Source: Candidatus Multivorans sp.
GTDB lineage: Bacteria > Acidobacteriota > Thermoanaerobaculia > Multivoradales > Multivoraceae
NCBI GenBank assembly: GCA_965247095.1
Contig: OZ251997.1
Location: 1,248,001 to 1,312,000 of the forward strand
DNA: 64,000 bases
Reading direction: 5' to 3'
Shown: positions 2,573-15,312 of the stretch, in pieces
How the letters are laid out: each line of letters opens with the position of its first letter
Numbering within the stretch: the stretch's first letter is position 1
Program-made: the position numbers and the translations under genes
The notes under the pieces: generated by a model
What the model was told of the DNA's origin: nothing
Database searches by the model: none
Seen by the model: the letters and a program-made list of their open reading frames with translations, nothing else

Positions 2573-3544
2573 TCAGATGGGTTCCATTTCGTCGACTCGC
2601 CGCAGGAACTCGCCCGCATCGCGGCAGGTGAATGCGAGCCGAATCACGCCTGCCGGATCGGACGAACCGTCGCAGCCGGCGAGCCATCGCTTCAGCGCGA
2701 CAGAAACCGGGATGCCGCGCGAAACGAACGCCTCGGTGACCGCCGCGCGGACGAGTTCGGCGGCGGCTTCCCTGCGCTCCTGGCGCAGGAACGGATCGTC
2801 GTCCGGCCCGGTGCCCTCGGCAGCGCCCAGCGCTCGGCCCACCCGGCGCAGGACGGAGACTGTCTCGGCTGACTCTTCCTGCTCGTTCAACGCGTGGTGG
2901 ATTTCCACGGCAGTCCATCCCGGGAAGGCGCGGCTCGTCGGCGCCGCGACGTATCGGTCACCCTCCCACAGGAAGATCGTCAGGCCCGAGCGCCGCCTGC
3001 CCCGCAACCAGGGAGGGTCCGGCACTTCCACCCACACTTCCGGCAGCCTCCAGGCCGCGTAGTCCTCCAGCTTGCCGCGGCGGCCGCCCCGGCCACGCCG
3101 GACATCGGTCGTGTAGTCCACCTCCAGCACGACATCCGGCAACGAATCGCTGTCCACCTCGATGTAGGGGCCGGCGGGCGCGTCTCGCTTGGGGTGAAGG
3201 TAGATCGTCGCGTCGGCCTGAAGGACCAACTCCCGGTGGCCAGCAGCGCTCCGGGCGACCAGGTCGGCCGAACCGGCCGAGAAGATCGCTGAACCGCGAA
3301 CATGAGCGATCGACCGGATCAACTGGACCAGCCGGCTTGCGCACGCGTCGTGCTGGACGCTCGGCTCCCGCAGCACCATCGCGATCTGCGTCCTCGCGTC
3401 CCAACACTCCACCCGGCGGCCGTCGCCCTCGTCGAACTCGGCGAGCGTCATGGGGACGGCGTCGCAGCCCAGGTACTCGCGGGGAGCAGACTGTGCGGCC
3501 GCACGACGGATTTCCGACAACCCCGAACCGCTCGCACCTTCCAT
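2573..3544 (-). CDS. Uma2/DUF820-family putative PD-(D/E)XK nuclease
   Basis: LQADATIY, LPDVVLEVDYTTD and KLEDYAAWRLPEVWV motifs; ATG 3544 has TAGGAT 7 nt upstream. Confidence 0.75.
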   Translation of the reverse strand: MEGASGSGLSEIRRAAAQSAPREYLGCDAVPMTLAEFDEGDGRRVECWDARTQIAMVLREPSVQHDACASRLVQLIRSIAHVRGSAIFSAGSADLVARSAAGHRELVLQADATIYLHPKRDAPAGPYIEVDSDSLPDVVLEVDYTTDVRRGRGGRRGKLEDYAAWRLPEVWVEVPDPPWLRGRRRSGLTIFLWEGDRYVAAPTSRAFPGWTAVEIHHALNEQEESAETVSVLRRVGRALGAAEGTGPDDDPFLRQERREAAAELVRAAVTEAFVSRGIPVSVALKRWLAGCDGSSDPAGVIRLAFTCRDAGEFLRRVDEMEPI

Positions 3545-3792
3545 GGTTCGGATCCTAACCGAGTCCAGCACCGAATCTGAGCACCGTCCCGGCAAGAGGC
3601 CCTCTCGGCAAGCATGGCCCTCGTTCCGTCCGGCCGAAGCCGGCAGCCGCCGGCTGAGCCGCTGACGCCCCGGCCGTATTGCCGATACCCCATCGTTGTG
3701 GAATAGTCCCTCACTGGTCGAGCGACGCGTTCCGATTCGCCATCGCTCGCCGGACTAGAGCTCGATCGCCGGAATAGAGCACGTCACAATCG

Positions 3793-5202
3793 ATGGGCAC
3801 GCACCGTTTCAGACGGGGACTGAGCCTGCCCATCTCGGGCGCTCCCGAGCAGACGGTCGCCGACGCCGCGGCGCCCGGGACGGTAGCGGTCACGGCCGCC
3901 GACTACCCCGGCATGAAGCCGGCGATGCACGTCTCGCCGGGCGACGCCGTACGGCGCGGACAACTCCTGTTCGAGGACCGCAAGCAGCCCGGTGTCCGCC
4001 TCACCTCGCCTGCCGCCGGCACGGTCGTGGCCGTGAACCGGGGCGCCAAGCGAGCCCTGATCTCGGTCGTGGTGCGGGTCGATCCCTCGGACCAGGCGGC
4101 ATCGGGCGGCGCCCAGGTCGACTTCGCGAACTACACCGGGCGTCACCCGAGCGCTCTGAGCCGCGAGGAAGTGCAGGCGCTGCTGGTCGAGTCCGGCGAC
4201 TGGACCGCCCTGCGGGCGCGCCCATTCGGGCGCACCGCCGCCCTCGGGTCGATGCCCAAGTCGATCTTCGTCACCGCGATGAACAGCGAACCCTTCGCCC
4301 CCGATGCGGACCGAATCGCCGAGGGACGCGCCGGCGACCTGGAACGCGGTCTGGCGGCCCTGGCCCGGCTGACTGACGGCCCGGTCTATCTCTGCCGCGC
4401 GCCGGGAACGCTGGCGGCCGTCGAGACGAGCGGCCAGGTGCGGATCGAGGAATTCGTCGGCCCCCACCCCGCCGGCGCTCCGGGCCTGCACATTCACACC
4501 CTGGATCCGGTCGACCGCAGCAAGCTCGTATGGCAGATCGGACTCCAGGACACCGTCGCGATCGGCCGGCTGTTCGCGACCGGGGAGTCCGACGTTGTGC
4601 GCATCGTCGCTCTCGCCGGCCCGCCGGTGCGCGCTCCGAGGCTGCTGCGCACGCGGCTCGGCGCCTCCCTCGCCGATCTTGTGCGGGCCGAGACGAGCAA
4701 CACGGGCGAAGCTGACGGCGACGTCGCAGCGCGTGTCATCAGCGGCTCGCCTCTCAGCGGCCGAACCGCGATCGGGAAGGGCGCGCCGGCCGACCTCCAC
4801 GGCTACCTGGGCCGCTTCCACGACACGGTCTCGGTGCTCGAGGACGACCACAGCCGCCGCTTTCTGGGCTGGCTGCAGCCCGGCTTCGGCGCTTTCTCGC
4901 GCGCCCGCGCCTTCGGCTCCACGCTGCTGCCTCGCCGGTCCTTCGCCATGACCACGACGACCTGGGGTTCACCGCGCGCCATCGTGCCGATCGGCCTCTA
5001 CGAGAGCGTCTTTCCTTGGGACTTGCAGCCGACCTTCCTGCTCAAGTCCCTGGTGGCCGGGGACATCGAGCGGGCCGAAGAACTCGGCTGCCTGGAGTTG
5101 CTGGAGGAGGATCTGGCGCTCTGCACCTTCGTGTGCCCCGGCAAGACCGAGTACGGCCCCTACCTGCGCGACGCGCTCGAACTGATCGAGAAGGAAGGTT
5201 AG
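3793..5202 (+). CDS. nqrA: Na+-translocating NADH:quinone reductase subunit A
   Basis: RRGLSLPISGAP N-terminus, GPHPAG, LGCLELLEEDLALCTFVCPGKTEYG...IEKEG; operon context. Confidence 0.95.
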   Translation: MGTHRFRRGLSLPISGAPEQTVADAAAPGTVAVTAADYPGMKPAMHVSPGDAVRRGQLLFEDRKQPGVRLTSPAAGTVVAVNRGAKRALISVVVRVDPSDQAASGGAQVDFANYTGRHPSALSREEVQALLVESGDWTALRARPFGRTAALGSMPKSIFVTAMNSEPFAPDADRIAEGRAGDLERGLAALARLTDGPVYLCRAPGTLAAVETSGQVRIEEFVGPHPAGAPGLHIHTLDPVDRSKLVWQIGLQDTVAIGRLFATGESDVVRIVALAGPPVRAPRLLRTRLGASLADLVRAETSNTGEADGDVAARVISGSPLSGRTAIGKGAPADLHGYLGRFHDTVSVLEDDHSRRFLGWLQPGFGAFSRARAFGSTLLPRRSFAMTTTTWGSPRAIVPIGLYESVFPWDLQPTFLLKSLVAGDIERAEELGCLELLEEDLALCTFVCPGKTEYGPYLRDALELIEKEG

Positions 5203-5218
5203 GGCCCTTCGGCTGGCA

Positions 5219-6475
5219 ATGAAGTTCCTGCGCAAAATCCTCGACCGTCAGGCCCGCCACTTCGAGCCGGGCGGCCGCTTCGAGCGCTTCTACCCCCTCT
5301 ACGAAGCGCCCGACACGTTTCTCTACACGCCCGGCAAGACGACCGCCGGCGCCGCCCACGTACGCGACGCGCTCGACCTGAAGCGCCTGATGATGACGGT
5401 CGTCGTCGCGCTGGCGCCGTGCGTGCTGATGGCCATGTTCAACACGGGACGCCAAATCCACCTGGCGATCGCGGGTGGCGCCACCCCCCTGCCCAACTGG
5501 CGCACCGACGCGATGGAGCTGCTGGGGCTGCCCTTTGATGCGAGCAGCGTGCTCGCCAACTCGGTTCACGGCGCGCTTTACTACCTGCCGGTCCTGATCG
5601 TGACCTTCGCCGTCGGCGGCGCGTGCGAAGGGCTGTTCGCGGTCGTCCGGCGCCACGACATCAACGAGGGCTTCCTGGTCACCGGCATGCTCTTTCCGCT
5701 GGTCCTGCCGCCGACGATCCCCCTTTGGCAGGTTGCGATCGGCATCGCCTTCGGCGTCGTCGTCGGCAAGGAGATCTTCGGCGGCACCGGCTACAACGTG
5801 CTGAACCCGGCGCTTACCGCGCGCGTCTTCCTGTTCTTCGCCTACCCGGTCCAGATCTCGGGCGATGCGGTGTGGATCGCGGCCGGCACTTCGGCCGACG
5901 GGTACAGCGGCGCCACCGCGCTCGGCGTCATCGCGGCGCATAAGGCTGAACCCGATTCGAGCGTCGCCGTGCTCGACGGGCTGGCCGCCATCAAGGACGA
6001 CGTATCGTGGATGCAGGCCTTCCTGGGCGACATTCCGGGTTCGTTGGGCGAGACGTCCACCGTCGCCTGCCTGATCGGCGCCGCCATCCTGATCGCCACC
6101 GGCATCGGCTCCTGGCGCATCATGGTTGCCGCCACCGCGGGATCCCTCGCCATCTCCCTGCTGCTGAACCTGGCCTCGTCGGCGACGAATCCGATGCTCT
6201 CCGTGCCCTTCCACTGGCACGTGGTGCTCGGCGGCTGGGCCTTCGGCATGGTCTTCATGGCCACCGATCCGGTCAGCGCGGCGCAAACGAACCGGGGCCG
6301 GTATATCTACGGTTTCCTGGTCGGCGTGCTGGCGATCCTGATCCGCACCGTGAACCCCGCCTTTCCGGAAGGCGTGATGCTCGGGATCCTGTTCATGAAC
6401 CTGTTCGCGCCCCTGATCGACCACTACGTCCTGAAGGCGAACATGAAGCGCCGTCAGGCGCGCTACGCACAATAG
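5219..6475 (+). CDS. nqrB: Na+-NQR subunit B
   Basis: HVRDALDLKRLM, KEIFGGTG, FMN motif SGAT, GSLGETS, FMATDPVS. Confidence 0.95.
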   Translation: MKFLRKILDRQARHFEPGGRFERFYPLYEAPDTFLYTPGKTTAGAAHVRDALDLKRLMMTVVVALAPCVLMAMFNTGRQIHLAIAGGATPLPNWRTDAMELLGLPFDASSVLANSVHGALYYLPVLIVTFAVGGACEGLFAVVRRHDINEGFLVTGMLFPLVLPPTIPLWQVAIGIAFGVVVGKEIFGGTGYNVLNPALTARVFLFFAYPVQISGDAVWIAAGTSADGYSGATALGVIAAHKAEPDSSVAVLDGLAAIKDDVSWMQAFLGDIPGSLGETSTVACLIGAAILIATGIGSWRIMVAATAGSLAISLLLNLASSATNPMLSVPFHWHVVLGGWAFGMVFMATDPVSAAQTNRGRYIYGFLVGVLAILIRTVNPAFPEGVMLGILFMNLFAPLIDHYVLKANMKRRQARYAQ

Positions 6476-6496
6476 ACTGGCTGGCGGAGCTTCCCG

Positions 6497-7279
6497 ATGC
6501 CCAACCGACAGGCCACCGGCTACACCCTTCTGTTCGCGACCGCGATCTGCATCGTCTCCGGTATCCTCGTTTCCTCGTCCGCGGTCACCCTCGAAGATCG
6601 CCAGAACGCGAACGCCGCTCTGTACAAGCAGAAGCGGGTGCTCGAAGCGGTGGGACTGCTCCAACCCGGCGAGTCGGTTACCGCGGAACAGGTGGCCGAG
6701 CGCTTCAAGCCGATCGAACCGGTGATCGTCGACCTCGCCTCGGGCGAACCGCAGGCCGACGCCGACGCGGCCACCTTCGACCAGCAGCGGCGGGCCCGCG
6801 ACCCGGCCACCAGCACCGAAGCGCCGACCAACCCGGCCAAGGTCAAGCGGGTCCCCGACCAGGCACTGCTCTACGAAGTGCGAGACGACGACGGCGAGCT
6901 CGAGATGGTCGTTCTGCCGATCGAGGGCCTCGGACTCTGGGGCACCCTCTACGGCTTTCTGGCGCTCGGCGCCGACACCACGACGGTGCGCGGCATCACC
7001 TACTACCAGCACAAGGAGACGCCGGGCCTGGGCGGCGAGGTCGACAACCCGCGCTGGAAGAACCTGTGGCCGGGGCGCCGGGCCTTCGACGACGACGGCT
7101 CGTTCCGGCTGGAGGTGATCAAGGGCCAGGCCGCCAGCGCGGAGCAGGATCCGTACCGCGTCGACGGTCTGAGCGGCGCCACGATCACGAGCCGGGGAGT
7201 AACGAACATGCTTGACTTCTGGCTCGGCGACAAGGGCTTCGAGCCCTACCTCGACCGGATCCGCGCGGAGGCGAACTGA
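6497..7279 (+). CDS. nqrC: Na+-NQR subunit C
   Basis: [29 protein letters not shown] motif. Confidence 0.95.
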
Positions 7280-7905
7280 TGGCGATCAAGAAGAGCGAAG
7301 CGGCGCTCGATCCGCTGTGGAACAACAACCCCATCGCACTCCAGGTGCTCGGCATCTGCTCGGCGCTGGCGGTGACCACGAAGATGGAAACCTCGCTGGT
7401 CATGTGCGCGGCCGTCATCTGCGTGCTGACCGTCTCCAATCTCACGATCAGCCTGCTCCGCCATCAGATCCCGAACAGCATCCGGATCATCGTCCAGTTG
7501 ACCGTGATCGCTTCGCTCGTCATCGTCACCGACCAGATCCTCAAGGCCTACGTGTTCGAGATCAGCAAGCAGCTCTCGGTGTTCGTCGGGCTGATCATCA
7601 CCAACTGCATCATCATGGGACGGGCTGAGGCGTTCGCGATGCAGAACCCGCCGTCCCTCGCGATCATGGACGGCATCGGCAACGGCCTCGGCTACAGCGC
7701 GGTGCTGATGGCCACTGCGGTGCTGAGGGAGCTGTTCGGCTCCGGGAAGCTGTACGGCGTCTCCATCCTGCCCACCGTCTCCGAGGGCGGCTGGTACCTG
7801 CCGAACGGCCTGATGCTGCTGTCGCCCGCCGCGTTCTTCATCATCGGCGGCATCATCTGGGCGCTCCGCGTCTGGAAGCCCGCACAGGTCGAGATGGACG
7901 GCTAG
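7279..7905 (+). CDS. nqrD: Na+-NQR subunit D
   Basis: [36 protein letters not shown]. Confidence 0.95.
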
Positions 7906-7920
7906 GGAGGACTCCGGACG

Positions 7921-8538
7921 ATGCTCGAGGACTACCTGAACCTGGCCGTGAAGGCCATCTTCGTCGAGAACATGGTATTGACCTTCTTCCTCGGCCTGTG
8001 CTCGTTTTTGGCCGTGTCGAAGAAGGTGGAGACCGCCGTCGGCCTGGGGCTGGCGGTGATCTTCGTGCTCACCGTCACCGTGCCGATCAACAACCTGATC
8101 CAGACCTACCTCCTGAACGAGGGCGCCCTGGCCTGGATCAGCCCCGAGTTGGCCGCCTACGACCTCACCTTCCTGAACCTCCTCTGCTTCATCGGGAGCA
8201 TCGCGGCGATGGTCCAGCTCGTGGAGATGACGACCGACCGCTTCTTCCCGGCGCTTCACGCCAGCCTGGGCATCTTCCTGCCCTTGATCGCGGTGAACTG
8301 CGCGATCCTGGGCGGCTCGCTGTTCATGGTCGAGCGTGACTACGACCTCGGCGAGAGCGTCGTGTTCGGCCTCGGCTCGGGCATCGGCTGGTTCCTTGCC
8401 ATCGTCGCCCTGGCGTCGATCCGCGAGCGCCTGCGCTACAGCAACGTGCCCCACGGACTGCGCGGCCTGGGCATGACCTTCATCGTCACCGGCCTGATGG
8501 CGTTCGGCTTCATGGCCTTCGGAGGCATCCAACTGTGA
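7921..8538 (+). CDS. nqrE: Na+-NQR subunit E
   Basis: [32 protein letters not shown]. Confidence 0.95.
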
Positions 8539-9755
8539 TCACCGAAGCCCTGCTCGGGGTGGTGATGTTCACGGTCGTCATCCTGGCTCTCGTTCTGATC
8601 CTGATGCAGGCCAAGGCCCGCCTGGTCGCCGGCGGCGAAGTGCAGATCCTGATCAACGACGAGAAGTCGCTGACCGCGACGACCGGCGGCACCCTCCTCA
8701 GCACCCTGGCCGAGCATCAGATCTTCATTCCGTCGGCTTGCGGAGGCCAGGGCACGTGCGGCGTCTGCACCGTCGACGTGCTCGACGGCGGCGGCGCGAT
8801 GTTGCCGACCGAGAAGACCCACATCAGCCGTCGCGAGGCCCGCGAGGGCTGCCGCCTGAGCTGTCAGGTGAAGATCAAGGAGGACATGAAGATCGCGGTC
8901 CCGGCCGAGGTCTTCGGGGTCAAGAAGTGGCAGTGCACCGTGCGCTCGAACGAGAACGTCGCCACCTTCATCAAGGAGCTGATCCTCGAGCTCCCGGCCG
9001 GCGAGGAGGTGCCCTTCCGGGCCGGCGGCTACATCCAGATCGAGTGCCCGCCGCACGAGGTGGACTACAGCACGTTCCAGATCGAGGACGAGTACCACGG
9101 GGACTGGGACCGCTTCAAGCTCTGGAATCTGGTGTCCAAGGTCGACGAGACCGTCATCCGCGCCTATTCGATGGCGAACTACCCGGAGGAAAAGGGCATC
9201 ATCATGCTGAACGTGCGGGTGGCGACGCCGCCGCCGCGCCAGATGGACCTGCCCCCGGGCCAGATGTCGTCCTACATCTTCGATCTGAAGCCGGGCGACG
9301 AGGTGACGATCGCGGGCCCCTTCGGCGAGTTCTTCGCCAAGGATACCGACGCCGAGATGGTCTTCGTCGGCGGCGGCGCCGGCATGGCGCCCATGCGCTC
9401 CCACATCTTCGACCAGTTCCAGCGCCTCCAAGCCAACCGCAAGGTGTCCTTCTGGTACGGCGCCCGCTCCTACCGCGAAGCCTTCTACACCGATCACTTC
9501 GACCGCATCGCGGCCGAGAACCCGAACTTCACTTGGCATCTCGCGCTCTCCGACCCGCTCGAGGAGGATCACTGGGAGGGCTACACCGGGTTCATCCACC
9601 AGGTCCTGTACGACAACTACCTGAAGGACCACCCCTGTCCGGAAGACGTCGAGTACTACCTCTGCGGACCGCCGCTGATGCTCCAGGCCTGCATGAAAAT
9701 GCTCGACGACCTGGGAGTCGAGCCTGAGAACATCGCCTTCGACGACTTCGGCTAG
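8535..9755 (+). CDS. nqrF: Na+-NQR subunit F (2Fe-2S/FAD)
   Basis: [32 protein letters not shown]-terminal FDDFG. Confidence 0.97.
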
Positions 9756-9861
9756 GAATCCGCGCGGCCGGGTTGAGGTCGTCGGTAACACCCGTCTGGC
9801 GCGGGTCCGGTGGGAGGGGTCCCGAAGGGGGAATCAGTCCAAGCGGGACGGCGGACGGAGT

Positions 9862-10908
9862 ATGCCGCTGCTACTAGTCCTTGCCGGCCTGGTCGTGGGC
9901 TGCGCGCAGGCGCCGAGCGAGGTCGTGCTGCAGGGGCCAACGATGGGCACGTCTTACCGCGTCCGGGTCCTGGCCGGTTCGGACAAGCGCGAAGCGATCC
10001 GAGCGCTCGTTGAAGAGAAGCTGGCCACGGTCGACCGAGAGATGTCGACCTACCGGGAGGACTCGGAGATCTCTCGTTTCAACCGGCTTTCGGCCGGCGA
10101 GTCGCTCGTGTTCTCCGAAGACACGTGGTCGGTCCTGGAACTTGCCTGGCGGGTGCGCGATGAGAGCGGTGGAGCGTTCGATCCGACGGTGGGGCCCCTG
10201 GTCGACGCCTGGGGCTTCGGCGCGCCGGGACGCGGCTTGTCGCCGACCCCTCCCGCCGATGACCATCTCACCGAGTTGCAACGGGCGGTGGGCGCTATCG
10301 AACTATCGCCGGCCGCTCGGCAGGCGACGAAGCTCGACAGTGCTGCGGCGCTCGATCTCTCGGCTGTTGCCAAGGGTTGGGCCACGGACCGGGTCTCCGA
10401 GGCCTTGGCGGCGGCCGGCTACACGAAGCACCTGGTCGAAGTCGGTGGCGAGGTGCGCACCGCCGGCTACAGCAGTTCCGGCGGTCCGTGGCGTATCGCC
10501 ATCGAGCGACCGCCCGCCAAGGTGGCGGAGCCAGAGAACGACGCTCCTGCCGAAGCGACGACGGAAACTACTCCGCCCCGTCTGCAGCAGGTGCTGGGGA
10601 TCACCGACGGCGCCCTGGCGACCTCGGGCGACTACCGGAATTACTGGGAGCGCGATGGGGTCCGCTACTCCCACACGATCGAACCCAGGACCGGCCGGCC
10701 GGTGGTCCACGCACTGGCGTCGGCGAGCGTGATCCACGAGCGCTGCGCGGTGGCGGACGCCTACGCCACCGCCCTGATGGTGCTCGGGCCTGAAGACGGT
10801 CTGCGCTGGGCGGACGAGAACGGCGTGGCGACGTTGCTGCTGGTTTACGGCGAGTCCGGCATCGAGGAGTTGACGAGCGCGGCCTTCCGCGAACGCTTCG
10901 GGAGCTAG
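9862..10908 (+). CDS. apbE: FAD:protein FMN transferase ApbE (lipoprotein)
   Basis: Lipobox LVVGC, TMGTSY, GAFDPTVGPL, DLSAVAKG, ATSGDYRN, ADAYATA. Confidence 0.93.
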   Translation: MPLLLVLAGLVVGCAQAPSEVVLQGPTMGTSYRVRVLAGSDKREAIRALVEEKLATVDREMSTYREDSEISRFNRLSAGESLVFSEDTWSVLELAWRVRDESGGAFDPTVGPLVDAWGFGAPGRGLSPTPPADDHLTELQRAVGAIELSPAARQATKLDSAAALDLSAVAKGWATDRVSEALAAAGYTKHLVEVGGEVRTAGYSSSGGPWRIAIERPPAKVAEPENDAPAEATTETTPPRLQQVLGITDGALATSGDYRNYWERDGVRYSHTIEPRTGRPVVHALASASVIHERCAVADAYATALMVLGPEDGLRWADENGVATLLLVYGESGIEELTSAAFRERFGS

Positions 10909-10920
10909 ACTCTCCGCGAG

Positions 10921-11103
10921 ATGGCCCTCCTGCTTCTAACCATCACCGTCATCGCCGCTTGCGTGATCCTCATGTCGGTCGGCGTGCTGTTGAACGGCCG
11001 CTGCCTGCGCGGCTCCTGCGGCGGCCCGGACATCCTCGGACCCGACGGCGAGCCCCTCAGTTGCGCCAGTTGTCCCCTGCGACGTGCGCGGGAGGAAACC
11101 TGA
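10921..11103 (+). CDS. nqrM: Na+-NQR maturation factor NqrM-like
   Basis: One TM helix followed by the Cys motif CLRGSCGG...CASC; located after apbE. Confidence 0.8.
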   Translation: MALLLLTITVIAACVILMSVGVLLNGRCLRGSCGGPDILGPDGEPLSCASCPLRRAREET

Positions 11104-13292
11104 TCGTCACCGAGGGTGGTCCCGAGCGCCCGATCCAGATCACCCACGACGGCGAAGCGCAACCGTTCTCCCGTGGGCTGCTTGCGCGCAGCCTCTACGC
11201 GGCCGGACTCGACTTCGACCGGGCCTACCGCCGGGTGGAGCAACTGCAGCGACAGTTGCAGCGGGAAGGCACGACCAGCCTTGAGAAGCAGCACCTCGCG
11301 CAGAGGATCGCCGAACTTCTGGAAGCGGAAGAGGGCGCGGACACCGCTTCACGCTACCGGCTGATCCGTCGCCTGCGCCGGCTGCCGAAACCCCTGATCC
11401 TCTATATCGGCGGCGGCGCCGGCACGGGCAAGTCCACCCTGGCGCTCGATCTGGCGCCGCAACTGCGCATCTACCGGATCAACGCCACCGACACCGTGCG
11501 TCAGGTGATGCGGATGGTGTTTTCGCCGGCGATCCTGCCGGCACTCCACGTCTCGAGTTATGAGACCCCCGCCGATTCTGCGAGCGAGTTCGCTACCGCC
11601 GGCGGCAACACACAGGTAGCGACCCTGGAAGAGCAGGCCACCAGGGTGTGCGTCGGCGTCCGGGCGGTGGTCGAACGGGCGATTGCCGAGAACCTCAGTC
11701 TGGTCGTCGAGGGCGTCCACCTCCTGCCCGGTCTGGTTCCGTTCACCGACCTCGATGGCGAGGCCTACCAGTTCTTCACCGTGCTCTCGACCCCTGACGA
11801 GGAAGTGCACCGCAGCCACTTCCTCGCGCGCGAGTCCTTTGCCGGCAGAAGGCCGAACCGGCAGCTCGACCACTTCCGGGTCATCCGTGAACAGCAGAGC
11901 CACCTGTTGCGACTGGCTCGGGAATCGGGGATCCCGATCCTCGACACGACGGACCGGGAGGAGTTGCTTCCGACCGCCATCGCCCTGCTCGGGCAGAGCC
12001 TGTCCCAGCGACTGCCCTGGCTCACCCAGGCGTCGATGCGGTTGCTGAGCGAGCGCCGTACCCCGGCTTTCCTGCTGGTGATCGACGGTCTTCCCGACCG
12101 GCCGCTGCGCTCGCTCGGGGCGCGGACGCCGCTGGAAGCCGCGCGAACGCCTACGCTCGACCGGCTGGCCCGGGAAGGCGCCTGCGGTCTGGCCGACCCG
12201 ATAGCGCCCGGCGTGGTTCCGGATACGGCATCGGGAAACCTCGCCCTGTTCGCCCAGTCGCCGAGGGTGATGACCCGAGGACCCATCGAGGCACTGGGCG
12301 CCGGCCTCAAGCTGAAGACCGGAACGATCGCCATCCGCGGCAATTTCGCCACCCTCGACGAGCGCGGTTTTGTCGTCGACCGCCGGGCCGGCCGCATTCG
12401 CGAAGGGGCCAAGATACTCGCCAAGGCACTCGACCGTCTGGAACTTCCCGCCTCGGACCCGGTCAAGGTCCGCGTGCGGGCCACGACGGAGCATCGACTC
12501 GCGATCACTCTGCGCGGAGAAGGTCTCACGTCGGCCATCGAAGGCTCCGATCCGGGCGACGGCGCACCCTCTGGACGACCGCTGGCGCCGAGGCCTGTCG
12601 ATCCGAACGACGACAGCGCCGAGCGCACTGCACGCGTCCTGGCCCTGTTCGAGCAGGAGGCGCGGCGAGTGCTGGCGCGGCATCCGGTGAACGAGGAACG
12701 GCGTGAGAACGGCGAACTGCCGGCGAACGCGGTCCTGACTCGAGGAGTGGGCCGGGTCCACCGGCTTCTGCCCCTGGAGCCGGGCGGTCTGCCGCTCAGC
12801 GCGGCCTGCATCGGCGGCGACCGGACGGTGATGGGCATCGCCTCGGCACTCGGCGCCTCCGTCATCCGCCGTCGCGGCATGACCGCGAACGTGGACACGG
12901 ACTTAGGCCTCAAGTTCGATAGCGCCGCCGAAGCGCTCAAGGAGCACGACCTGGTCATCGTTCACGTGAAGGGCGCCGACATCGCCGCTCACGATCGCCG
13001 CCCCGATCTGAAGGTCGCCTTCCTCGAGCGCCTCGACCGCGAACTCGGCGCCCTGATCGAGAGGCTGAAACAGCCGATCCGTGTCGCCGTGACGGCCGAC
13101 CACGCCACCCTGTCCGAGGTCGGCGCCCATGGCGCCGATCCGGTGCCGGTGCTGATCTGGGGCGACGGGATCGCACCCGATGCGGTGACCAGCTACGGCG
13201 AGCGTGCCGCCAGCACCGGCAGGCTGAACCGGTTCCCGCTCCAGCTCCTGGTGGAGCGGCTGTTTGAGCAGTACGGCGACGAGGCGTCCTGA
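11100..13292 (+). CDS. Fusion: archaeal-type 2-phosphoglycerate kinase (ATP-cone-like + P-loop) and ApgM-type cofactor-independent phosphoglycerate mutase
   Basis: N-half: PFSRGLLARSL, YIGGGAGTGKST, TDTVRQVMR, LHVSSY, VVEGVHLLPG. C-half: LVIDGLPDRP, TPLEAARTPTLD, RGNFAT, HVKGADIAAHD, TADH. Start appears non-canonical (CTG 11100 or ATC 11103). Confidence 0.8.
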   Translation: MIVTEGGPERPIQITHDGEAQPFSRGLLARSLYAAGLDFDRAYRRVEQLQRQLQREGTTSLEKQHLAQRIAELLEAEEGADTASRYRLIRRLRRLPKPLILYIGGGAGTGKSTLALDLAPQLRIYRINATDTVRQVMRMVFSPAILPALHVSSYETPADSASEFATAGGNTQVATLEEQATRVCVGVRAVVERAIAENLSLVVEGVHLLPGLVPFTDLDGEAYQFFTVLSTPDEEVHRSHFLARESFAGRRPNRQLDHFRVIREQQSHLLRLARESGIPILDTTDREELLPTAIALLGQSLSQRLPWLTQASMRLLSERRTPAFLLVIDGLPDRPLRSLGARTPLEAARTPTLDRLAREGACGLADPIAPGVVPDTASGNLALFAQSPRVMTRGPIEALGAGLKLKTGTIAIRGNFATLDERGFVVDRRAGRIREGAKILAKALDRLELPASDPVKVRVRATTEHRLAITLRGEGLTSAIEGSDPGDGAPSGRPLAPRPVDPNDDSAERTARVLALFEQEARRVLARHPVNEERRENGELPANAVLTRGVGRVHRLLPLEPGGLPLSAACIGGDRTVMGIASALGASVIRRRGMTANVDTDLGLKFDSAAEALKEHDLVIVHVKGADIAAHDRRPDLKVAFLERLDRELGALIERLKQPIRVAVTADHATLSEVGAHGADPVPVLIWGDGIAPDAVTSYGERAASTGRLNRFPLQLLVERLFEQYGDEAS

Positions 13293-13293
13293 A

Positions 13294-13803
13294 TTGGCGA
13301 AGAAGATCGAGCGCCCCGTCCAGCGACGCGCTGACCTGGCCGGCGGCCGGGGCTTCGCCTGTGTCGCGCTGGACCGGCCCGCCGATCCAGTGAACGTCGG
13401 CCACGTCCTGCGCGCGGCGCTCTGCTTCCAGGCCCGCATGATCATCCTGAGCCAGCCCTCGGGAGACATCGACATCCGCCGGCTACCGACGGATCCCACC
13501 CGGGCCTACCGGCACGTGCCGGTGATCGAGGTCGAGGATCTGATCGAAGCGACCCCTCGCGACACGGCTCTGGTTGCAGTCGAGATCGTGCCGGACGCCA
13601 TCGCACTTCCCGACTTCGTACACCCCGAGCGGGCCTGCTACGTCTTCGGACCGGAGAGTGGCGCGGTTTCCGACCGCATCCTAAAACGGAGCGACCACCG
13701 GATCCGGGTTCCGACTGCCGTGTCGCTGAATCTCGGCATGACGGTCGGCGTCGTGCTCTACGACCGCTGCGCCGACCGCTGGCGCCGGAACGGCGAAGCA
13801 TAA
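13294..13803 (+). CDS. SpoU/TrmH-family RNA 2'-O-methyltransferase
   Basis: DPVNVGHVLRAA, YVFGPESG and SLNL SPOUT motifs; TTG start next to the upstream stop. Confidence 0.85.
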   Translation: MAKKIERPVQRRADLAGGRGFACVALDRPADPVNVGHVLRAALCFQARMIILSQPSGDIDIRRLPTDPTRAYRHVPVIEVEDLIEATPRDTALVAVEIVPDAIALPDFVHPERACYVFGPESGAVSDRILKRSDHRIRVPTAVSLNLGMTVGVVLYDRCADRWRRNGEA

Positions 13804-13804
13804 G

Positions 13805-14497
13805 TCAGTTCTCGGACGACGACGCAGCCGGCTCGGCAAACAGAGACAGCAGCGGAAGCCCGAGACGCTCGCGCACGGAGCGGCGCACCAGGCGCTGCCT
13901 GAGCTCCGGCAACCGGTCCTCGTCCACTCTTCCGGCCATCCGAGCCAGCGCCTCGCCGGCGCCCGCCACGACGGCTTCGCGGTCCGCCGGCGCCAGGGAC
14001 TCGAACGCCTGCGCCAAAAGTTCGATATCCAACTCGGCCAGCCGGGCTTCGACGTCGGGGGCCGGACCGCTCAGCCCGAGCAGCCTGCTCTGCCAGACGT
14101 CGCCACCTTCCAACGTCGCCGGTAGCGCGGACGCCAAGGCCGCAAGCCGCGCCGGCACATCGATCGCGGCCGGCCGCCGGCGCACCGGCGGTACCGCCCC
14201 CAACTCCCGGTAAACCGCCCATGCCTTCTCCACCGCCGCCCGGCAGTACCGCAAACTGCTCACCCGTCTCTTCGGCGCCTCCGGCGAGGCGGCCGCCCGC
14301 TCGGCCCGGCGCGCGAACACTTCGCGGATGCTCTCGAGGACCAACGAGAGCGGCACGCCCTCCAGCCGCCACTGCTGCGCCAAGCGCCAGTCGGCGGGAC
14401 TCAACAGCAACGGCGCTCCACGCAGCCGGATGAACTCTTCCTCGATCGCCTCGAAGTAGTCGCGGTCCCCGCTCTCAGGATCCGCTCCCGGGGTCAC
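13805..14497 (-). CDS. Conserved hypothetical protein, N-terminus resembles a DnaD/DnaB_2-like helical domain
   Basis: YFEAIEEEFIRLRGAPLLLSPADW...W...GVPL...SSLRYC; GTGA overlap with birA. Confidence 0.55.
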   Translation of the reverse strand: MTPGADPESGDRDYFEAIEEEFIRLRGAPLLLSPADWRLAQQWRLEGVPLSLVLESIREVFARRAERAAASPEAPKRRVSSLRYCRAAVEKAWAVYRELGAVPPVRRRPAAIDVPARLAALASALPATLEGGDVWQSRLLGLSGPAPDVEARLAELDIELLAQAFESLAPADREAVVAGAGEALARMAGRVDEDRLPELRQRLVRRSVRERLGLPLLSLFAEPAASSSEN

Positions 14498-15312
14498 GCC
14501 TCGATGACCTCGCCCGAGGCGATCGTGCGCAGACCGGCCGCCGTCTCGAGGCGAAAGCGGCCGCCGTCATCGAAGCCCGCGAAACGGCCGGAGAGCGTCT
14601 CGCCGCCGATCCGGCAGCTCACCTCGTCGCCCTCGCGATGGACGCTGCAGGGGCGGTAGGCATCCAGTGCGTACACGGGGTCTCCGGCGTGGCTCAGCTC
14701 GCGTTCCAGCGAGGTCGCGAGCCGTTCGACGACGGCCGCCCGCGAAGGCACGCGCTCGGTCTCGAGCGCGAGCGATGTCGAGACCGGCGTCGGCAGTTCG
14801 CCCCCGGCGCCGAAGTCGTAGTTCACGCCGAAACCAATCACGGCGACCATGCCGCCTTCTCGGCCGACGACCGTCTCGATCAGGATCCCCGCGATCTTGC
14901 GGCCGCCCACGAGCACGTCGTTGGGCCACTTCAGGCCCGCTCGGCCGCCTGTGAAGCCCGCCAACGCGCGGCACACCCCGACTCCGGCCAGCAGCGGCAG
15001 CGCACCGAGCTGATCCTCCACCGGGCCCGCCCCCGCGATCGGCAGCGGCTGCAGCCAGGTGCAGTAGAGACCGCGTCCCGCGGTGCTGACCCAGGAACGA
15101 CCCTGTCGACCCCGGCCCGCGGTCTGCTCAAAGGCCACCACCAGCGCCGTCTGGGGCGTGGATTCCTCCTCCAAAAACCGTTCGGCCAGAGCCTTGACGA
15201 AACGGTTCGTCGAGTCGACCGTGTCCATCAACACCAGGTTGTCCGGCAGGCGCCGCGAACGGGACCGAAGTTCCCCGACAAATTGGTCGAAATCGTTGGA
15301 GCGGTCCGCCAT
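14494..15312 (-). CDS. birA: Biotin--protein ligase (no HTH domain)
   Basis: VDSTN, QTAGRGRQGRSW, KWPNDV, KIAGIL. Confidence 0.93.
   Translation of the reverse strand: MADRSNDFDQFVGELRSRSRRLPDNLVLMDTVDSTNRFVKALAERFLEEESTPQTALVVAFEQTAGRGRQGRSWVSTAGRGLYCTWLQPLPIAGAGPVEDQLGALPLLAGVGVCRALAGFTGGRAGLKWPNDVLVGGRKIAGILIETVVGREGGMVAVIGFGVNYDFGAGGELPTPVSTSLALETERVPSRAAVVERLATSLERELSHAGDPVYALDAYRPCSVHREGDEVSCRIGGETLSGRFAGFDDGGRFRLETAAGLRTIASGEVIEA

Follow-up and report, generated by a model that had tools for sequence, protein, structure and literature searches.

The stretch analysed here (the window) comprises 64,000 nucleotides from Candidatus Multivorans sp. (Acidobacteriota; Thermoanaerobaculia), positions 1,248,001 to 1,312,000 of contig OZ251997.1 in assembly GCA_965247095.1. 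Behind the genes for a Na+-translocating NADH:quinone reductase (nqr), it carries a gene whose predicted product of 730 amino acids (aa) joins a kinase related to 2-phosphoglycerate kinase (2PGK) to a mutase-like domain of the ApgM type. Genome comparisons firmly indicate that this fusion is real and widespread among bacteria, and its tie to nqr is a feature of one clade. The genes and features at the locus are as follows:

3793..9755, + strand: nqrA-F, Na+-translocating NADH:quinone reductase, six open reading frames (ORFs) (Pfam NQRA, NQR2_RnfD_RnfE, FMN_bind, Rnf-Nqr twice, Fer2/FAD/NAD)
9862..10908, + strand: apbE, FAD:protein FMN transferase (PF02424 at 271 bits)
10921..11103, + strand: nqrM-like gene, 60 aa (weak PF04400 match, E 0.018; translation; kept in 35/35 close loci, see below)
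11090..11095, + strand: Shine-Dalgarno-like GGGAGG, 4 bases 5' of the CTG (GGGAGG or AGGAGG in 35/35 related loci; the same letters encode the nqrM C-terminus)
11100..13292, + strand: fusion gene, 730 aa from the CTG at 11100 (743 aa from the gene callers' TTG at 11061)
11136..11378, + strand: ATP-cone-like domain, residues 13-93 (PF03477 below threshold here and found in most listed homologues; the model is a beta-hairpin plus helices; alignment)
11394..12053, + strand: 2PGK-like P-loop kinase domain, residues 99-318 (NF008994, NF003259; fold like that of nucleoside monophosphate (NMP) kinases)
11409-11438, + strand: Walker A motif of the kinase domain
12054..12065, + strand: linker between the two enzymes, of low confidence (predicted local distance difference test (pLDDT) <50 at residues 317-324 and 329-332)
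12066..13289, + strand: ApgM-type metalloenzyme (mutase-like) domain (PF01676, PF10143, TIGR00306; PDB 2zkt, 3kd8, 3idd)
12225..12227, + strand: Thr376, in place of the presumed nucleophile serine of ApgM (alignment to 2zkt and 3kd8)
13294..13803, + strand, alternative start 13264: SpoU-family 2'-O-methyltransferase (PF00588 at 70 bits)

The open frame of the fusion spans 10959..13292 on the + strand. Pfam residue numbers below are those of the 777-aa frame read from 10959, metal-ligand residues are numbered in the 743-aa form, and Thr376 and the Walker A residues in the 730-aa form. The initial annotation had described one frame of about 730 aa, with its start overlapping the end of nqrM and a SpoU methyltransferase gene immediately after it, and this layout was borne out: the CTG at 11100 shares bases with the nqrM stop TGA (11101-11103), and the spoU start at 13294 lies 2 bases past the fusion stop (13264 being the other candidate start).

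The four motifs from which the two modules had been recognized are all present in the 730-aa protein: PFSRGLLARSL (residues 22-32), GGGAGTGKST (residues 104-113, which conforms to the Walker A pattern GxxGxGK[ST] of 2PGK), TDTVRQVMR (residues 130-138) and EGVHL (residues 204-208). Pfam and NCBIfam agree with the assignment of the modules. Residues 369-758 match the Metalloenzyme family (PF01676) at 116 bits and PhosphMutase (PF10143) at 114 bits. The mutase half marginally passes the ApgM family threshold of TIGR00306 (327.6 bits, cut-off 320) and misses the ApgM equivalog NF003104 (366.6 bits, cut-off 489). The best-scoring NCBIfam families are 2PGK for the kinase half and ApgM for the mutase half. 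The order of an N-terminal ATP-cone followed by a P-loop kinase is that of 2PGK, although the ATP-cone match of this protein (PF03477, 22.4 bits, residues 62-141) falls under the cut-off of 25.8. The kinase half was modelled with a pLDDT of 88.9, and at identities of 9-20% its fold is like that of the UMP/CMP, adenylate, gluconate, shikimate and dephospho-CoA kinases and of the PFKFB kinase domain; in a sequence search of solved structures none matched the kinase half. The full-length AlphaFold model (pLDDT 73, predicted template modelling score 0.64) was set aside for domain orientation. Across the alignment, the kinase shows no variation in its Walker A and family motifs. Profiles and motifs thus assign to the protein, firmly, three parts: an ATP-cone-like domain, a 2PGK-related P-loop kinase and an ApgM-type mutase-like domain.

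A word-indexed protein search returned 756 homologues. Among the best 120 of the 756, for which details are given, nearly all are of fusion length (740-835 aa), and the named ones belong to Holophagales, Thermoanaerobaculia or Acidobacteriota and are annotated as cofactor-independent phosphoglycerate mutase (iPGM) or as ATP-cone protein. Species-representative genomes gave 263 stretches with the search pattern, of which 183 encode a relative; 80 loci were kept (query 743 aa), 35 of them close (76-98% identity) and 45 distant (56-63% identity). Most of these loci are labelled Acidobacteriota or Thermoanaerobaculia, and the nearest are Candidatus Multivorans. All 80 match almost the entire query or reach a contig end, and a 4066-base contig from an independent public run spans 9800-13433. 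A misassembled junction, which the initial annotation had named as a way in which the fusion could prove false, was ruled out by these many independent assemblies. Full-length fusions were also found at just 36-39% identity (P0238-P0246) in an exhaustive search of 50%-identity representatives. In a sample of 201 genomes from the phylum the kinase is present in 29, lying in frames of 822-905 aa in 17 and of 350-461 aa in 12 (the shorter frames take in one unpublished genome, G146). In a sample of 101 genomes from the class, no match to the kinase half was found outside fusions at E <= 1e-20. Most relatives carry two tandem ATP-cone-like domains, and stand-alone kinases of ~390 aa have the two-cone architecture as well; the Multivorans clade is without the first copy. 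This loss coincides with the capture of the gene behind nqrM.

The same modules also occur as separate genes. A metagenome scan seeded with stand-alone kinases gave 47 loci with a flank of up to 6 kb each. The mutase match comes after the kinase in 42, and 3 of the other 5 end at a contig edge. In 5 of the 42 (L098, L118, L128, L136 and L143) the two are separate genes that adjoin or overlap; the reading frame was checked for 1 of the other 37. Acidobacteriota genomes supplied ten loci with a stand-alone kinase, and in four of them (L148, L150, L153 and L149) the mutase adjoins, with the order reversed in L149. Both COG2074, the 2PGK family, and COG3635 occur in Thermus and Deinococcus (PMC1274311). 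Because the modules are found both fused and as adjacent genes, the two halves are likely to be functionally coupled, a conclusion backed by this Rosetta-stone evidence.

The start of the fusion gene was deduced by comparing the close loci. All 35 have the CTG at 11100, the overlap of this CTG with the TGA (CTGA) and the Shine-Dalgarno-like motif, whereas the TTG at 11061 that gene callers chose occurs in only 19/35. Three related loci have no canonical in-frame start ahead of the conserved PFSRG motif, and in seven the sole start option is a GTG located 18 bases 3' of the CTG. In the alignment examples read, changes 5' of 11100 leave the residue as it is in the nqrM frame and alter it in the fusion frame. 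Contigs from RNA libraries match parts of the fusion gene, and one of them crosses the nqrM junction (10982-11210). A scan of 3300-14600 for promoters and terminators was uninformative: it gave no promoter-like site, and the 4 terminator-like sites compare with 4.1 expected. We conclude that translation of the fusion is probably coupled to that of nqrM and begins at a conserved CTG within the CTGA overlap; the locus would then be a clear case of a CTG start conserved in a stop-start overlap of this kind.

The initial annotation had asked for a survey of the nqr linkage across genomes. The genes nqr, apbE, nqrM, spoU, a 230-aa gene, birA and valS flank the fusion in 35/35 close loci and in 0/45 distant loci. 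In G073, a complete one-contig genome of the same genus, the fusion is almost wholly deleted and nqr, apbE, nqrM and spoU are retained; the remnant between nqrM and spoU consists of ~20-30 bases of the 5' end and ~45 bases of the 3' end. From the contrast between close and distant loci and from the G073 deletion, we conclude that the nqr linkage is a family-level synteny limited to the Candidatus Multivorans clade, and that the fusion is dispensable for the operon. The placement behind nqr governs expression in that lineage and does not speak for a function in the sodium pump. The case shows that operon position can mislead, the linkage being real and tight yet lineage-specific.

Some details of this region were recorded as well. 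In G073, L147:2700-2990 matches window positions 10895-11125 and 13225-13330, as a clean internal deletion would leave them, and the remnant appears to be in frame with the SpoU gene, which starts there with GTG. In L010, L013, L014 and L027, ~1 to 4.4 kb of extra DNA lies between apbE and nqrM, with the nqrM-fusion overlap retained. Beyond spoU, on the opposite strand, lie the unnamed 230-aa gene, birA and valS. The 230-aa ORF (13805-14497, - strand) is without a Pfam or NCBIfam match and is kept between spoU and birA in 33/35 close loci, the remaining two stopping short of that position.

The mutase half departs from the solved ApgMs at the presumed nucleophile. Thr376 aligns with the serine of the GSD motif in 2zkt and 3kd8, and with the serine of the stand-alone ApgM encoded elsewhere in this genome; from the iPGM literature we take this serine to be the catalytic nucleophile. 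Threonine occupies the column in 12/12 fusion representatives and in 9/9 split partners (5/5 from the metagenome scan and 4/4 further ones), and mutase-only representatives have 34 Thr, 65 Ser and 1 Glu. Residues D342, D640, H644, D680, H681 and H690, presumably the metal ligands of an alkaline-phosphatase-type site, are invariant in the alignment and have matching motifs in 2zkt and 3kd8, and the DRRAGR motif is retained exactly as in the solved ApgMs. This pattern marks the kinase-linked mutase domains as a distinct ApgM subfamily. A second candidate signature, 'MTANxDTDL', was dropped because Ser-type ApgMs hold a similar ATGxxDTD. With threonine at the nucleophile position, the mutase half may not be an ordinary mutase of 3-phosphoglycerate (3-PG) and 2-phosphoglycerate (2-PG). 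The coupling of the two halves that the initial annotation had proposed gained support from the split genes.

The stand-alone ApgM paralogue of this genome passes the equivalog NF003160, and all fusion genomes in the class sample have such a paralogue. Neither GpmI nor GpmA was found in the genome; in the case of GpmA, only a cobC-like histidine phosphatase turned up. The paralogue is presumably the housekeeping mutase. In its sequence (L002:1465-2817 (-); G000:C1:3532675-3533853) a glutamate replaces a metal-ligand histidine of the fusion and of the solved ApgMs (KGTDMAGED), and the same glutamate pattern (DSDEDHH) is seen in ten mutase-only representatives. Supply of 2,3-bisphosphoglycerate (2,3-BPG) to a cofactor-dependent phosphoglycerate mutase (dPGM) was ruled out for this genome, which has no GpmA.

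Genes of phosphate metabolism recur beside the distant relatives. The neighbours in the 45 distant loci include a SixA-like histidine phosphatase (12 loci), PPK1 (10), PhoU (7), a metallophosphoesterase (7), a PAS histidine kinase (5) and a Na/Pi symporter (4). At least one of PPK1, SixA-like, Na/Pi symporter and PhoU lies within 5 kb in 20/45, and at least one of the same genes within the flank of up to 6 kb in 18/47 metagenome loci; the split locus L136 has PhoX. Of the 45 distant loci, only 31 offer at least 3 kb of upstream flank. A phosphate gene was found within 6 kb in 4/10 stand-alone-kinase loci: the Na/Pi symporter in L149, L154 and L156, and PPK1 with a SixA-like gene in L155. The arrangements of these genes differ between loci.

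The reading that we favour, tentatively and with a little less than even confidence, is that the protein is a bifunctional enzyme of an undescribed kinase-coupled ApgM branch, which would convert 3-PG to 2-PG and then to 2,3-BPG, or to a close analogue, and would serve phosphate housekeeping. Its alkaline-phosphatase-superfamily phosphotransferase domain, which retains the ApgM metal site and has Thr in place of Ser, would convert 3-PG to 2-PG. The kinase domain would phosphorylate 2-PG with ATP to give 2,3-BPG, so that the two domains would act in sequence on phosphoglycerates under the control of the ATP-cone. The product may be a store, buffer or signal for phosphate, and would not be made for salt adaptation. 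In the Multivorans lineage, the gene lost its first ATP-cone copy and was recruited to the 3' end of the nqr operon. 2,3-BPG is known as an effector in red cells, as a mutase cofactor and as the precursor of an archaeal extremolyte, cyclic 2,3-diphosphoglycerate (cDPG). A storage role has a parallel in Methanothermobacter, where, according to a review, cDPG possibly acts mainly as a carbon and phosphate store (PMC1224877).

Literature searches, whose coverage did not extend to subscription journals, found no paper on the bacterial fusion and nothing on 'Candidatus Multivorans', which agrees with the initial statement that no description was known; the databases hold the protein as an iPGM or an ATP-cone protein. 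No dedicated bacterial route to 2,3-BPG is described in the searchable papers. If the fusion makes 2,3-BPG, abundant bacteria of soil, sediment and sponges would have a new means of storing or signalling phosphate, and a function would be at hand for many '2-phosphoglycerate kinase' homologues outside the cDPG-producing methanogens.

Several points weigh against this reading. The kinase half falls short of both 2PGK equivalogs, with 246.2 bits for NF008994 (cut-off 603) and 220.7 bits for NF003259 (cut-off 343), and the chemistry of any bacterial member is inferred from sequence. With a mutase paralogue already encoded in the genome, a second mutase devoted just to providing 2-PG seems redundant, which favours a different role for the Thr-type domain. 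Phosphate neighbours are missing from more than half of the loci, and the neighbour counts come from related loci and therefore overstate independent support. No phosphate gene lies near the fusion in this genome, the nearest, PPK1, being 544 kb off. Three split or kinase-only loci adjoin genes for RsbW-like and STAS proteins, not phosphate genes. The RNA contigs all stem from one study, and they could hold contaminating DNA; gaps in their cover of the gene (X19 and X20) are of no significance. In the RsbW/STAS loci (L118:4995-5772, L128:4851-5363 and L099:282-620) the 2PGK-like gene comes after an RsbW-like anti-sigma kinase gene and a STAS anti-anti-sigma gene, a context that hints at stress-regulated expression in that lineage.

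One alternative is a switch resembling PFK-2/FBPase-2, in which the kinase would make 2,3-BPG and the Thr-type domain would remove or transfer one phosphate, so that the fusion, under ATP-cone control, would set the level of a regulatory bisphosphate; such a switch might signal or buffer phosphate status alongside polyphosphate in many Acidobacteriota and other bacteria. The architecture parallels that of PFKFB, and the fold search also hit the PFKFB2 kinase domain (5hr5, E 2.8e-4), but NMP-kinase folds in general share this likeness. That the kinase is strictly paired with a specialized Thr-type domain, despite a housekeeping ApgM, fits an action on the kinase product, and the gene immediately upstream in 12/45 distant loci, in the same orientation, encodes the SixA-like enzyme, a member of the His-phosphatase superfamily. 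The complete ApgM metal site and DRRAGR, however, are compatible with plain mutase chemistry, and a signal of this kind has no known target. We regard the switch as unlikely.

To the same degree doubtful is the proposal that the enzyme acts on substrates other than phosphoglycerates, such as another hydroxy or phospho acid or a polyol phosphate, in the manner of mevalonate-3-phosphate 5-kinase, HomK or PhpG. There are further matches, all under their cut-offs, of the kinase half to PRK12338 and the model for mevalonate-3-phosphate 5-kinase, and of the mutase half to PhpG at 244 bits and to the proposed homoserine kinase at 204 bits. The failure to reach either 2PGK equivalog cut-off and the Thr nucleophile that sets the subfamily apart would also fit other substrates, and the plant protein LPA1, reportedly a 2PGK homologue, is said to affect phytate. 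Against this, the top models remain 2PGK and ApgM, DRRAGR is identical to that of the solved ApgMs, and no pathway genes for another substrate recur nearby.

The initial annotation had tied the fusion to salt: 3-PG would be channelled to 2,3-BPG for a cDPG-like compatible solute or signal linked to Na+-NQR. In its favour are the nqrM overlap with apparent translational coupling in 35/35 clade loci, a DNA source of the stretch that is labelled sponge metagenome (a salty habitat), and the recurrence beside distant relatives of Na/Pi symporters, which use the sodium gradient. The tie was not supported by the wider comparison, since nqr genes accompany none of the 45 distant loci, among which phosphate genes recur instead, and G073 deleted the fusion while retaining the operon. 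A search of the genome for cDPG synthetase, as the initial annotation had advised, was modelled on the solved enzyme, which has 460 aa and a Walker A motif near residues 143-150 (PMC10690619). It covered 66 ORFs of 330-750 aa with GxxGxGK[ST], and the 13 whose size and motif position fit were all assigned to other families, so that no candidate emerged from this heuristic, non-exhaustive screen. In Methanothermobacter, moreover, cDPG levels vary little with NaCl, as noted in a review (PMC1224877). We consider a salt or Na+-pump role very improbable.

That the mutase half is the cell's glycolytic phosphoglycerate mutase, with the kinase-like half as a regulatory appendage, is scarcely credible: the genome lacks GpmI and GpmA and the stand-alone paralogue has Glu for one metal-ligand His, but that paralogue passes the NF003160 cut-off and accompanies every fusion in the class sample, the kinase Walker A and family motifs are invariant, and G073, which holds only the stand-alone ApgM, lives without the fusion, so that the fusion was rejected as the sole glycolytic mutase.

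The preferred reading, a kinase-coupled ApgM branch acting on phosphoglycerates, can be set against four known systems. The 2PGK of Methanothermus fervidus (EC 2.7.2.16) is the first enzyme of the cDPG pathway. The fusion shares with it the ATP-cone, the P-loop kinase and the family motifs, and 2PGK is the top NCBIfam family of its N-terminal half; it differs in scoring under the equivalog cut-offs, in being bacterial and joined to a mutase-like domain, in the lack of a cDPG synthetase in our limited search, and in having phosphate genes or nqr, rather than cDPG genes, as neighbours. To the ApgMs (PDB 2zkt from Pyrococcus horikoshii, 3kd8 and 3idd) its mutase half aligns over the full length at E 1e-67 to 1e-69, with the metal motifs, DRRAGR and the TIGR00306 pass in common; in contrast to them it has Thr for Ser, misses NF003104, is always paired with a kinase and is a paralogue distinct from the stand-alone ApgM. 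The likeness to PFKFB is an analogy of design only, namely a P-loop kinase fused to a phosphoglycerate-mutase-family domain, the two together controlling a sugar-acid bisphosphate. The second domain is of the alkaline phosphatase superfamily in the fusion and a histidine phosphatase in PFKFB, and only the generic kinase fold is common to both. HomK/ThrB2 (TIGR02535, 204 bits) and PhpG (NF038358, 244 bits) have the same fold as the mutase half, at scores far under their cut-offs. The fusion does not share their threonine-operon or phosphonate context, and both enzymes show that the ApgM family is not limited to mutase chemistry.

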